A stretch of 14,577 bases of DNA from a virus, in the UHGV virus genome UHGV-1333726; one strand, given 5' to 3'. The position numbers were made by a program, and so were the translations under genes. This document shows positions 1,749 through 13,419 of this stretch, in pieces (positions within the stretch are counted from its first letter, which is position 1; each line of letters starts with the position of its first letter). A model generated the notes under the pieces. The model saw only the letters and a program-made list of their open reading frames with translations, was not told where the DNA came from and made no database searches.

Positions 1749-2055
1749 TTTTAATTCCCCCTGCCACACCTTCAGTCATTTTGTATTCAGCGATCAGTTC
1801 AGCACCAACCAATTCCACTTCATCACCAGGGAATGGATTAAGTTCCAATGATACTAAGATAAAAAATTTAACGTGATCTGCATTATCAAGATCTTTCACG
1901 TCAAAAGGAGGTTCAGCTACATGGAAGCACTTAACGCCATCCTCTTTGTCAGTGGCTACACGGAAACATGCGCCAGGCTGTCCGGCGAATTGTCCATTTT
2001 TTTCATCTTCTGGAAAAGTGCCACGGAAAACTTTAACGCTGATAAATTTAGACAT
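1732..2055 (-). CDS. hypothetical protein (107 aa)
   Basis: ATG 2055 with AAGGAGA upstream, 3 nt after the upstream stop. Confidence 0.6.
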   Translation of the reverse strand: MSKFISVKVFRGTFPEDEKNGQFAGQPGACFRVATDKEDGVKCFHVAEPPFDVKDLDNADHVKFFILVSLELNPFPGDEVELVGAELIAEYKMTEGVAGGIKIERIK

Positions 2056-7251: not shown

Positions 7252-7853
7252 GCCGCCTTTCTCCTTAAGGCGTCTAATTTCGCCTGATAAACTTTAATGA
7301 TCTCCTTACATTCTTCGATCGTCCATTTGTGAGTTTCGTTATTATTTTCTAATGCCTCCACCCTTTCTAATCCTATTTTTTTTATTAAATTTATTCTGTA
7401 TAACTCAACATTGCCGTCTAATACCTGATTGCAATGTCGGCATTGTAGGTTTACGTTATCCTCGTTAAATCGAAGGTGTCCGGCTGCCGCTACTGTGCGC
7501 CAGTGTCCAGCATCAGCGCCGCATTGTTCGTAATAATAAGTCCCGCAAGATATACACGGCTGACCCGCGTCACGCTCGCGTATATAAGCGTTAAAAACGT
7601 TTTGTGCCTGTTTAATCCAGTAGCTACGCGGATTTAACTGTTTCCGTTTCCGGTTGCGTTCTTCCCGCTGGCTATCACGGCGTTTCTTCCGCTCCATAGC
7701 CTTCATAGCCTTTTCACGATCGCGGCATAGCTGATCAAACTTCAGTTCTTCCAGACATTCATCGCTGCACCACGTTTGATTGTGATATTTAGGCTCAAAA
7801 AAAACGCCGCAGCATTTGCAACGGCGTCTTATAGGTTTTTTAGGGTTCTGCAT
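7248..7853 (-). CDS. ninG: NinG/Rap recombination protein
   Basis: ATG 7853 (ORF-track start 7943 is an upstream extension); RRRCKCC...YHNQTWCS...PRSYWIKQAQNVFNAYIRERD...PCISCG...HKWTIEECK closely parallels lambda NinG. Confidence 0.85.
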   Translation of the reverse strand: MQNPKKPIRRRCKCCGVFFEPKYHNQTWCSDECLEELKFDQLCRDREKAMKAMERKKRRDSQREERNRKRKQLNPRSYWIKQAQNVFNAYIRERDAGQPCISCGTYYYEQCGADAGHWRTVAAAGHLRFNEDNVNLQCRHCNQVLDGNVELYRINLIKKIGLERVEALENNNETHKWTIEECKEIIKVYQAKLDALRRKAA

Positions 7854-7867
7854 AAAAACCACCCCGA

Positions 7868-8044
7868 TTATTTTTGATTCTCTGTTTCGTTCAGCCTTTC
7901 GGCGTGTCCGGCCCTTAGCCAATGTTCTAAGCATTCGTTGCACTCGTTACAGCCTCCTTTCTTCGTGCTGCATACATTGCACATTGCACGCATGACGCTT
8001 TCTCGTTCATAGTCGTCATGCCATTGGTAATTATCAAAAGTCAT
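7868..8044 (-). CDS. ninF: NinF-like small Cys-rich protein (58 aa)
   Basis: Manually found ORF ATG 8044 to TAA 7868; MTFDNYQWHDDYERESVMRAMCNVCSTKKGGCNECNEC...; position immediately upstream of ninG and Cys-rich character as in lambda NinF. Confidence 0.5.
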   Translation of the reverse strand: MTFDNYQWHDDYERESVMRAMCNVCSTKKGGCNECNECLEHWLRAGHAERLNETENQK

Positions 8045-8161
8045 AATGCTCTCTCCTTTTCAGGTGATTTCTACGCATTTCAGCGCTGCCGGATTTTTAA
8101 AGAGCATTTTGTTTGCTTGAAGTATACAAAATGGATACACCAGAACAAGGCGAAAAGCGCC

Positions 8162-8181
8162 ATTATGTGATCCATATCACG
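8162..8181. promoter_or_regulatory. palindromic GATC-containing motif (candidate operator), site B
   Basis: Forward strand aTTATGTGATCcatATCACg: GTGAT-N4-ATCAC palindrome with GATC at 8169-8172, in the 159-bp gap upstream of ninF; shares TTATGTGATC-N3-ATCAC with site A at 11746-11763. Confidence 0.4.
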
Positions 8182-8203
8182 CAATGACGCCATTTTGTAA
8201 ACT

Positions 8204-8962
8204 TCAGTCCGGTAAAACGCGGTCATGGTTAGCCAGGAATACAGCACGGGCAAAGCCACGCGGTGTTAGTGAGCGGATCATCTTTGTTCGTTTCGTCCTG
8301 CCTCCGGTTTTCGCCCACCCAGGGTTATCACCAGAGTTAAGATCTACAGGTCTAAAAAGCGGCTGCCTGAATCCGTTGCCGCACCATATGCAAGTTTTCT
8401 TCGTGTACGCGTCGCGCGGTGGGTAAACATCAGGGAAAGCAGGATGCTTGTCATCTTCCGGCAGGTAGCCACCGTAAGCGCAAGGATTGAAGATAAAATC
8501 CGGTTTACGCCATAGCGTTGACAGCACACCAACAGGATTCTCCACCATCCACGGCACGTTATACATGTTAGCCAGAGATTCAACCAACATTGCGTTTCTT
8601 GCCGCCCTATTCTGAAAACAAGGATCTTTCCTGTATTTATCAACGAACCAGCGAGCGCCTGACACAGCGAGATCGTCGCATGGAGGAAAGCCCAGGATAA
8701 TGTCAGGCCCTGGATAAACAGACAATTCAGGGGAGAACATTCCCAGGAAATGGCTATCAATCCAGATGTTAACGTATTCAATATTTGGATGAATGATTTT
8801 AACGCCTTCATAATCTCCGTGATTTGCGCCGTCATAGTTGAAGCAATAGCACTTATATCCAGCTTCCGCCCAATCTTTAACGGCGTACCCGCTGCCGTCG
8901 TACAGCGACCACACCACCCAACTTCTAAGCCAATTATTTAACCAATGTTTAGCCCTGCTCAT
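8204..8962 (-). CDS. compact C5-methyltransferase-fold protein (putative DNA cytosine-5 methyltransferase-like enzyme)
   Basis: ATG 8962 overlaps TGA of upstream gene (ATGA); motif I-like LYDGSGY (res 21-27), GFPPCDDLAVSGAR (res 91-104, cf. M.HhaI GFPCQAFSISGK) and VENP (res 140-143, ENV-like) in canonical order and spacing; only 252 aa, no obvious QRR or target-recognition domain. Confidence 0.6.
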   Translation of the reverse strand: MSRAKHWLNNWLRSWVVWSLYDGSGYAVKDWAEAGYKCYCFNYDGANHGDYEGVKIIHPNIEYVNIWIDSHFLGMFSPELSVYPGPDIILGFPPCDDLAVSGARWFVDKYRKDPCFQNRAARNAMLVESLANMYNVPWMVENPVGVLSTLWRKPDFIFNPCAYGGYLPEDDKHPAFPDVYPPRDAYTKKTCIWCGNGFRQPLFRPVDLNSGDNPGWAKTGGRTKRTKMIRSLTPRGFARAVFLANHDRVLPD

Positions 8963-11114: not shown

Positions 11115-11156
11115 AGGTGCAGCCCCGANNNNNNNNNNTTCCAGTCTTTATAGTGT

Positions 11157-11668: not shown

Positions 11669-11720
11669 CTTGTTTTCCTCCGCGCCGTAAACCTTTTGAT
11701 TTCAGTTCACAAAACGGACA

Positions 11721-11763
11721 TGCGATCACAAAACAAAATGTATATTTATGTGATCGCAATCAC
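11721..11763. promoter_or_regulatory. inverted repeat plus GATC palindrome (candidate operator or RNA hairpin), site A
   Basis: Forward TGCGATCACA (11721-11730) and TGTGATCGCA (11749-11758) are perfect 10-bp inverted repeats with an 18-bp AT-rich spacer; overlapping palindrome GTGAT-cgca-ATCAC at 11750-11763; GATC at 11724-11727 and 11752-11755. Confidence 0.45.
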
Positions 11764-11767
11764 AATG

Positions 11768-12388
11768 TTAATGAAGTACGCGTTTTTCAGGTTCAGGCAC
11801 TAGCTGTGCGTCTTTCCGCGCGTCATTAAGCACAGCTATAGCTGCCTGTACACCTAAATCATTTGCGCGCATATTATTGCCAACCATTTCGCCGTAAAAT
11901 AATGGCATGATCGCCTTTACTTCTTCCTCTTTGTGCCCTTCATCAATACACTTCTGTAACGCTTTAGCCTCGAATACTTTTTTCATTACGCCGCGCACAG
12001 AATACAGCGCAACGCTACCCGTATGATTTTCATCTAACGGGAAAATAACAGCACTTCCGAACGCCAGTGGGTCAATTTCTTCCGGCACTGGTACTCGTCC
12101 AAATTCTTCTTCCATGCGTTTTACGAAAGCAAGGCAGAAGACATAACGAGCTACGGCAGTTTTTTCTTCAGCGTTTAAAGACACATAATCGCGGATCGAC
12201 GCGTCCATCATAATATCAACAATCTGCATAGCCAGGTTTAAATCAGCGTCATACGCGCCAGCTTCCATATCTTTTAATACTTCGTGATAATCCTTCGTTT
12301 CCACTTCATGAAAACTTGCATCTTCAGTGTAGCGAGTGATTAACATGCCATTGCTGCCAAGTGAATAAGCTGTTTTGATGTCGTTCAT
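11768..12388 (-). CDS. hypothetical protein (about 206 aa)
   Basis: ATG 12388 with AAGGA upstream (ATG 12397 also possible); largest unassigned ORF in window. Confidence 0.6.
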   Translation of the reverse strand: MNDIKTAYSLGSNGMLITRYTEDASFHEVETKDYHEVLKDMEAGAYDADLNLAMQIVDIMMDASIRDYVSLNAEEKTAVARYVFCLAFVKRMEEEFGRVPVPEEIDPLAFGSAVIFPLDENHTGSVALYSVRGVMKKVFEAKALQKCIDEGHKEEEVKAIMPLFYGEMVGNNMRANDLGVQAAIAVLNDARKDAQLVPEPEKRVLH

Positions 12389-13305: not shown

Positions 13306-13419
13306 TCACATGTTAGTAATGAGTTTAATAATCGCTACCGTGATATAAAGAGATACGCTGAGATACAGCACAGCGATAGATAAAGCCGCAAGCAATGCGG
13401 CAATTTTTGCAAAGCTCAT
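13306..13419 (-). CDS. tiny hydrophobic peptide (37 aa)
   Basis: Manually found; ATG 13419 overlaps TGA of upstream gene (ATGA), GGAGGG upstream; MSFAKIAALLAALSIAVLYLSVSLYITVAIIKLITNM. Confidence 0.35.
   Translation of the reverse strand: MSFAKIAALLAALSIAVLYLSVSLYITVAIIKLITNM

Follow-up and report, generated by a model that had tools for sequence, protein, structure and literature searches.

A conserved stem-loop of 36 nucleotides (nt), hairpin 1, was identified on the minus strand at positions 8156 to 8191 of the window (the whole 14,577-nt stretch of viral DNA, UHGV-1333726, that was analyzed), in the gap between a DNA methylase gene and ninF. With modest confidence, we assign hairpin 1 as the Rho-independent terminator that closes the methylase gene, corresponding to the predicted terminator t4 (TERM_4) of the mEp021-type (mEpimmI) phages. 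This reading is already known as a prediction, both from the mEp021 record and from the 2025 paper on the mEpimmI phages (PMC11893012). As the U-run of the hairpin is short and poorly conserved, its stem is atypically long, and termination at the site is only predicted, the terminator reading is put forward with caution.

Bases 7800 to 8500 of the window matched seven phage records only, all of them mEp021-type coliphages, with 95.7% identity to mEp515 and 95.3% identity to mEp021 across this interval, and prophages in 35 of 5,426 complete Escherichia coli genomes matched the methylase-ninF gap. The long open reading frames (ORFs) near the gap are all on the minus strand. Upstream is the 252-amino-acid (aa) methylase ORF (8204 to 8962, minus strand), which carries the product name DNA cytosine methyltransferase in RefSeq and mEp021 and ends with a TGA stop codon at 8204 to 8206. 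Downstream is the 58-aa ninF ORF (7868 to 8044, minus strand), with its start codon at 8044 to 8042 and a ribosome-binding site, GGAGAG, at 8049 to 8054 (minus strand), a site that is annotated in mEp021. These flanking ORFs leave positions 8045 to 8203 between them, in agreement with the 159-bp gap reported in an earlier description of this DNA made from its letters alone (here, the sequence-only reading). In mEp021, the gene for Dam methylase is followed by two hypothetical genes and then by those for cytosine methyltransferase, NinF, NinG, Holliday junction resolvase, and Q. NinG, RusA, Q, and Dam were confirmed in the window using Pfam; as neither the methyltransferase (at 1e-3) nor NinF had a Pfam match, the names of these two rest on the annotation of the records.

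For comparative analysis, forty IMG/VR loci collected through NinF and four more diverged records were combined with the window, mEp021, and mEp515, yielding 34 distinct versions of the gap that have diverged by only approximately 7%. The gap was also retained where neighboring genes differ: one locus (L023; IMGVR_UViG_2695420423_000006) has a different upstream gene, and two others (L082 and L083) carry a different gene in place of ninF downstream of the gap. Judged from these arrangements, the gap appears to behave as a conserved junction between exchangeable modules. An Rfam search of the whole window returned nothing at gathering thresholds, and a search of the gap at E values of up to 10 returned a chance match only.

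The sequence-only reading had drawn attention to aTTATGTGATCcatATCACg, which was found exactly at 8162 to 8181 on the plus strand, and to the palindrome within it, GTGATCCATATCAC (GTGAT-CCAT-ATCAC), which was found at 8167 to 8180 inside the methylase-ninF gap. It had described this palindrome (site B) as a second copy of one located elsewhere in the window (site A). The pattern GTGATNNNNATCAC (GTGAT-N4-ATCAC) occurs in the window only at 8167 and 11750; as two copies were found where 0.01 was expected, and none of 200 shuffled sequences contained two matches, the claim of a second copy is statistically real. What that reading overlooked is the full extent of the inverted repeat, which comprises 15 to 16 pairs running from 8191 to 8156. 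The palindrome thereby forms only the top five pairs and the 4-nt loop of hairpin 1 (8167 to 8180), the whole of which reads GGCGUCAUUG-C-GUGAU AUGG AUCAC-A-UAAUGGCGCU on the minus strand. The stem contains 15 pairs and one C·A mismatch and has a GGCGC base, directly 3′ of which is a run of UUUU (8153 to 8156, minus strand). Hairpin 1 begins 12 nt past the methylase stop codon, on the same strand, and has a predicted folding energy of −18.7 kcal/mol on its own; a 71-nt segment that includes a small downstream hairpin folds at −23.2 kcal/mol (z = −3.06).

A weak hairpin, GGCG-CUUUU-CGCC, had been proposed just downstream of the palindrome. It does exist in the window (8161 to 8149), but it reuses, as GGCG, the four bases that end the stem of hairpin 1 on its 3′ side; the opposite half, CGCC, falls in the most variable block of the gap (reading GCACC, TGTC, or ATTGC in relatives) and is not conserved, and this weak hairpin was rejected. 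A different small second hairpin, CGCC-UUGUUCU-GGUG, displayed apparent covariation by eye and was rejected, with 72% of its cells paired, a result no better than that for shuffles, and an inconsistent register. A role specific to Dam or to GATC is also unlikely, as the number of GATC sites in the window (65) is close to that expected (54 to 58), and GATC is missing from the palindrome in 7 of the 34 relatives.

Across the 34 distinct relatives the arms of hairpin 1 are near-invariant and 95% of stem cells are paired; the 4-nt loop is hypervariable, with ten variants, as are two short blocks 3′ of the stem. One-sided changes that preserved or improved pairing in the sense RNA were U·G to C-G (in two relatives), G·U to A-U (in one), G-C to G·U (in one), U-A to U·G (in six), and C·A to U-A (in 12). 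A stem mismatch was present in five single relatives. No pair of hairpin 1 carried a two-sided compensatory change among the 34 relatives, and covariation measures were within the range of shuffles, in a test that has low power because the relatives are only approximately 7% diverged; thus, the case for hairpin 1 rests on conservation and not on covariation. The hairpin is strand specific, with a mean stability of −20.2 kcal/mol for sense RNA versus −12.4 kcal/mol for antisense RNA, the sense form being the more stable in all 34 relatives. This asymmetry arises because the imperfect positions are G·U pairs on the sense strand.

The U-run keeps its first three U residues in 31 of 34 relatives; variation sets in over the following five bases, and conservation past the third U is among the lowest in the gap. 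The tail that follows the stem reads UUUUCGCC in the window, UAUUCACC in mEp021, and CAUUCACC in locus L007, such that the UUUU of the window, followed by CGCC, corresponds to UAUU in mEp021 and CAUU in L007. A TransTermHP-style tail score, computed here, passed −2.5 in 33 of 34 relatives. Hairpin 1 was absent from the output of a consensus terminator scan with a stricter criterion (at least 5 T in 8). The stem is also much longer and more A+U rich than the canonical terminators of this phage; other terminator-like hairpins are located at gene ends of the same operon, at 13401, 11091, and 3636. A further terminator-like hairpin followed by eight T residues (CGTTGCAAATGCTGCGGCG TTTTTTTT) was observed at 7805 to 7823 (minus strand), inside the ninG coding region, and at the corresponding position the mEp515 record annotates a terminator (T6, assigned with ARNold).

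Orthology to an annotated site is direct. The GenBank record of mEp021 (accession number MH706966.1) carries at 20087 to 20120 the entry "terminator TERM_4; score=79," which is positioned at 7358 to 7391 of locus L001 and corresponds to 8157 to 8190 of the window. Among the terminators of mEp021, t1, t2, and t5 have been demonstrated experimentally, and t3 and t4 are predicted (PMC11893012, Fig. 7 legend), t4 being a software prediction listed by its authors as without experimental demonstration. In the mEpimmI group, the N-like protein Gp17 acts on three nut sites, of which nutR2 is downstream of the cytosine methyltransferase gene, with t4 drawn beside it (PMC11893012). The proposal by the sequence-only reading of a nin-region terminator subject to antitermination therefore fits both the anatomy and the mEp021 annotation, as a predicted terminator.

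The position of nutR2 in the window was assigned from its similarity to nutL of mEp021. By this comparison, boxA (UGCUCUUUAAAAA) is at 8094 to 8106 and boxB, GCGC-UGAAAU-GCGU with an A-rich loop, is at 8073 to 8086, both on the minus strand, and boxA and the spacer (GCTCTTTAAAAATCCGG; 8089 to 8105) are identical in nutR2 and mEp021 nutL. The order on the sense strand, 5′ to 3′, is stop codon, hairpin, U-run, approximately 45 nt of other sequence, boxA, boxB, ribosome-binding site, and ninF. Most relatives have G·U as the bottom pair of boxB, four have A-U, and two have C-G (variants were seen in L032, L038 to L040, L082, and L083), and the loop UGAAAU is invariant; as the change to C-G is two-sided, it supports the boxB stem. 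When contigs were scanned with the 17-mer comprising boxA and the spacer, chance matches and rRNA operon spacers from many Enterobacterales were recovered, with no further homologues of the hairpin. The same GCTCTTTAAAAATCCGG sequence constitutes the boxA region near tRNA genes in the rRNA (rrn) operons of many Enterobacterales (loci L089 to L202), including Buttiauxella, Dryocola, Cedecea, and Salmonella. Given this identity to rrn boxA, the phage nut sites copy the host rrn antitermination signal exactly.

We infer both termination and read-through at hairpin 1, by the following route. The stem-loop would form in the rightward early transcript (the minus strand of the window) just past the methylase gene, where the stem of 15 to 16 pairs, the G+C-rich base, and the short U-run would together make a Rho-independent terminator. 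Unmodified RNA polymerase would stop there, ahead of ninF, ninG, rusA, and Q, and polymerase modified at nutR1 by the N-like Gp17 and host Nus factors would read through. Approximately 50 nt beyond the hairpin, nutR2 could strengthen the complex for transcription of the distal genes.

Beyond the hairpin, the gap is rich in copies of a short motif, ACAAAATGG. No intergenic 8-mer of mEp021 is more over-represented than ACAAAATG(G) (consensus GTWTACAAAATGG), with 14 copies versus 0.34 expected, and 21 of 28 matrix matches of the ACAAAATGG type are intergenic. The motif is usually paired, often as a TATACA-N3-TGTATA dyad. Five copies were found in the window, versus 1.27 expected, at 8190 to 8198 (minus strand), 8126 to 8133 (plus strand), 8105 to 8112 (minus strand), 11733 to 11740 (plus strand), and 1777 to 1784 (minus strand). 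The gap itself holds three exact ACAAAATGG copies, one near copy (the 3′ arm of hairpin 1), and one site resembling that of the cyclic AMP (cAMP) receptor protein (CRP). The ACAAAATG motif may serve as a promoter element or as the operator of some phage regulator; no operator sequences are defined in the mEpimmI paper (PMC11893012).

Two of these copies form a 17-nt inverted repeat that encloses hairpin 1. Its 5′ arm, UGAAGUUUACAAAAUGG (8190 to 8206, minus strand), holds one ACAAAATGG copy and includes the methylase stop codon, and its 3′ arm, CCAUUUUGUAUACUUCA, is at 8118 to 8134 (minus strand). An alternative to the terminator reading, to which we assign a low probability, is that the hairpin is a structural RNA with another job, serving as a 3′ barrier that stabilizes the methylase message, as an RNase III-type processing site, or as an arm of a larger fold (8206 to 8190 with 8134 to 8118) that controls access to boxA of nutR2. 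The two 17-nt arms are 94% complementary and form an outer helix in the minimum free energy (MFE) structure of the 83-nt region in the window (−30.8 kcal/mol), as they do in the MFE structures of most relatives checked; the few changes observed in this helix replace A with G across from U, so that G·U pairs are retained. In addition, the 3′ arm of the repeat can alternatively pair with 8105 to 8118, the 14 nt running into boxA, and the weak conservation of the U-run would suit an RNA with a role other than termination. However, the outer helix showed no covariation across relatives, and a stem of 16 bp containing a mismatch is short for an RNase III substrate. The arms also copy a motif that occurs in many other intergenic regions without a pairing partner, which points to a role at the DNA level.

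The sequence-only reading had also noted CATAAT, resembling a −10 hexamer, directly after the palindrome on the coding strand in the same arrangement as at site A, and had suggested an operator and promoter for ninF-ninG-rusA-Q. CATAAT is present, overlapping the arm as ATCA-CATAAT; the arrangement at site A is only roughly the same, as the hexamer there is CATAAA and not CATAAT. It is very improbable that the palindrome serves as an operator for an overlapping promoter with CATAAT as its −10 element. The hexamer matches TATAAT at five of six positions and is invariant in relatives, and a similar hexamer does follow site A, but no usable −35 element accompanies it, the best candidate at 16 to 18 bp being GCGTCA (three of six positions), and a promoter scan did not list the site. 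CATAAT falls within the 3′ arm of hairpin 1, and so pairing alone accounts for its conservation. At site A, the hexamer varies in relatives (CATAGA, CATAGC, and CATGAA) and has no final T; a promoter there was rejected, as the variation affects the critical second position of this −10-like hexamer. Nor was the dyad found at the immunity promoters of mEp021, where no GTGAT-N4-ATCAC sequence with one or fewer mismatches is present in the immunity region (10.8 to 12.3 kb).

It was also considered whether a short hydrophobic peptide (37 aa) is encoded in the gap from an ATG at 8192 (MASLRDMDHIMALFALFWCIHFVYFKQ...), which would make the palindrome plain coding sequence. This ORF, MASLRDMDHIMALFALFWCIHFVYFKQTKCSLKIRQR (8080 to 8192, minus strand), is open in the window and spans the hairpin and the nut site, and the records of mEp515 (mEp515_47) and MagusPhagus (CDS0096) annotate comparable small ORFs. 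Against this, in 10 of the 34 relatives, mEp021 included, the frame is interrupted by a stop codon or a frameshift or has lost its start codon, and the ORF was rejected on this basis. Moreover, variation within the variable blocks falls at all three codon positions, the ORF has no Shine-Dalgarno sequence, and its distal half is the nut site, making a coding function extremely improbable.

Another candidate for an internal promoter is located 25 to 45 nt further downstream, and for this segment, although not for CATAAT, the earlier suggestion that the gap is a promoter or operator region may hold. A putative −35 element, TTGTTC (8143 to 8148, minus strand), is followed after 16 bp by a putative −10 element, TATACT (8121 to 8126, minus strand). 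TTGTTC forms a conserved island between two hypervariable blocks, with TTGT invariant and TTGTT present in 32 of 34 relatives; TATACT is invariant in all 34, and the spacer is 16 bp in every case. A 17-bp near-palindrome, GTATCCATTTTGTATAC (8122 to 8138, arranged 7-3-7), which is one of the ACAAAATGG copies in the gap, overlaps the −10-like hexamer, and its 15-nt core, GTATACAAAATGGAT, equals a site in mEp021 (11925 to 11939) that abuts the −35 element (TTGACT) of the pR-like promoter preceding gp17, the N-like gene. From its sequence, TTGTTC-16-TATACT may be a weak-looking promoter starting approximately 8 nt before boxA. If so, nutR2 would have a promoter of its own, as nutL and nutR1 have.

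The same candidate promoter bears on a second explanation for the palindrome, which we consider unlikely, namely, that it is a DNA site, as would be site A, for the host CRP-cAMP complex or a protein of the same specificity, located approximately 60 bp upstream of an internal promoter feeding nutR2, ninF, and Q, and acting instead of or beside the RNA hairpin. At site B, the apex of the hairpin plus one flanking base on each side (8166 to 8181) reads CGTGA-N6-TCACA, matching the CRP core at 9 of 10 positions. At site A, GTGAT-N4-ATCAC (11750 to 11763) lies within a perfect core, TGTGA-N6-TCACA (11749 to 11764). Among the 34 relatives, the core at site B is perfect in 11 and matches at 9 of 10 positions in 22, with the hypervariable positions confined to the N6 spacer. 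The intergenic DNA of mEp021 is enriched in sites with one or fewer mismatches to the core: five were found versus 0.18 expected, and none of 2,000 shuffles reached five. These are at 11126, 16519, 20096, 42075, and 44001 of MH706966.1, with weaker sites at 37691 and 52968, and one of the five is upstream of the repressor gene gp15. The center of the palindrome is 47.5 bp upstream of TATACT, placing it at approximately −59.5 from the candidate promoter, close to the class I position of −61.5, and the promoter's invariant −10 hexamer and constant spacer are as this explanation would have them. A promoter just upstream would, furthermore, explain the existence of a third nut site.

Several observations argue against a CRP site. 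The conserved inverted repeat reaches 10 pairs past any CRP site, and its asymmetry, with G·U pairs, favors sense RNA. The −35 element of the candidate promoter matches at only three of six positions, the promoter was absent from the calls of the promoter scan, and −59.5 is 2 bp off the optimal helical face. The match was also noticed post hoc among many possible factors; comparison by eye of the IHF, LexA, TyrR, and FNR consensus sequences with the two motifs gave no fit, leaving CRP as the only one to fit the palindrome. For its part, the terminator reading leaves a feature over, as a CRP match at the hairpin apex that recurs at site A is not required of a plain terminator.

Relatives of site A often alter the bases critical to CRP, with approximately 10 of 29 changed at the critical G/C positions (GTAAT, ATTACA, ATCATA, and ATCGCA), mostly while still pairing as RNA. 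Site A starts 4 nt past the stop codon of a 209-aa gene and is one part of a set of three GTGAT-type arms (11690 to 11770, minus strand), of which the middle arm can pair with either neighbor. Thus, the right arm of site A pairs with its left arm or, in a longer helix of 13 pairs, with a third copy, TGTGATCGC, located 21 nt downstream. The 13-pair helix encloses a TATACA-TTT-TGTAT dyad and is followed by CCGUUUUGU, and this second pairing has a compensatory change of A-U to G-C in two relatives (L044 and L047). Stability at site A is similar on both strands (sense, −14.9; antisense, −12.6), and the site has no terminator annotation in mEp021.

By eye, at least four of the CRP-like sites in mEp021 (16519, 20096, 42075, and 44001) are within approximately 50 bp of ACAAAATGG-type motifs, a motif that often forms a TATACA-N3-TGTATA dyad of 15 to 17 bp. 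A broader proposal can be built on these elements, although we regard it as distinctly unlikely: both GATC palindromes would belong to a set of CRP-consensus sites enriched in mEpimmI intergenic DNA, and the gap would act as a compound control region in which nutR2 is joined by a terminator, a site of CRP type, and an internal promoter open to repression. Expression of Q, and hence the lytic decision, would thereby depend on cAMP and on a phage regulator whose operators are dispersed.

If hairpin 1 is a working terminator, it marks the point at which ninF, ninG, rusA, and the late-gene activator Q become dependent on Gp17, and it would explain why a third nut site is found right behind the hairpin in a group of non-lambdoid phages. 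As the published mEp021 annotation already implies as much, our results are confirmation rather than discovery. The dominant intergenic motif and the CRP-like sites of these gut coliphages are a more original lead than the terminator, and the motif-rich 159-bp gap is a good place to test for an internal regulated promoter in the early-to-late switch.

The closest known counterpart of hairpin 1 is t4 of mEp021, which occupies the same position between the methyltransferase gene and ninF, just upstream of nutR2, and has identical stem arms; the two differ in the loop, which is AUGG in the window and GUGG in mEp021, and in the tail, as described above. The binding site of CRP-cAMP has the consensus AAATGTGATCTAGATCACATTT. 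The palindromes resemble its core, and site A does so perfectly, together with the flanking T and A (GTGAT...ATCAC). Unlike typical CRP sites, the candidate lies in a transcribed gene-end hairpin, the promoter that would lie near a standard distance (such as −41.5, −61.5, or −71.5) is itself only a candidate, and the critical positions at site A are not conserved in relatives. The boxB element of N-type nut sites is a short stem-loop in the early transcript near boxA, and the palindrome can be likened to it in being a short stem-loop in the early transcript close to a boxA. It differs in being upstream of boxA, in having a hypervariable loop, and in forming part of a 16-pair stem; boxB identity was rejected, as the true boxB of nutR2, with its conserved A-rich loop (8086 to 8073), is 80 nt downstream. 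In phage lambda, the nin-region terminators tR2 to tR4 are read through by N-modified polymerase. Compared with these, the stem described here is unusually long (16 pairs) and its U-run is short, and in this phage group, which is not lambdoid, a second rightward nut site follows the predicted terminator. As in lambda, the neighborhood is of the nin type (ninF, ninG, rusA, and Q), and the predicted terminator, like tR2 to tR4, is located between the early genes and Q, within an operon dependent on Nus factors and an N-type antiterminator.
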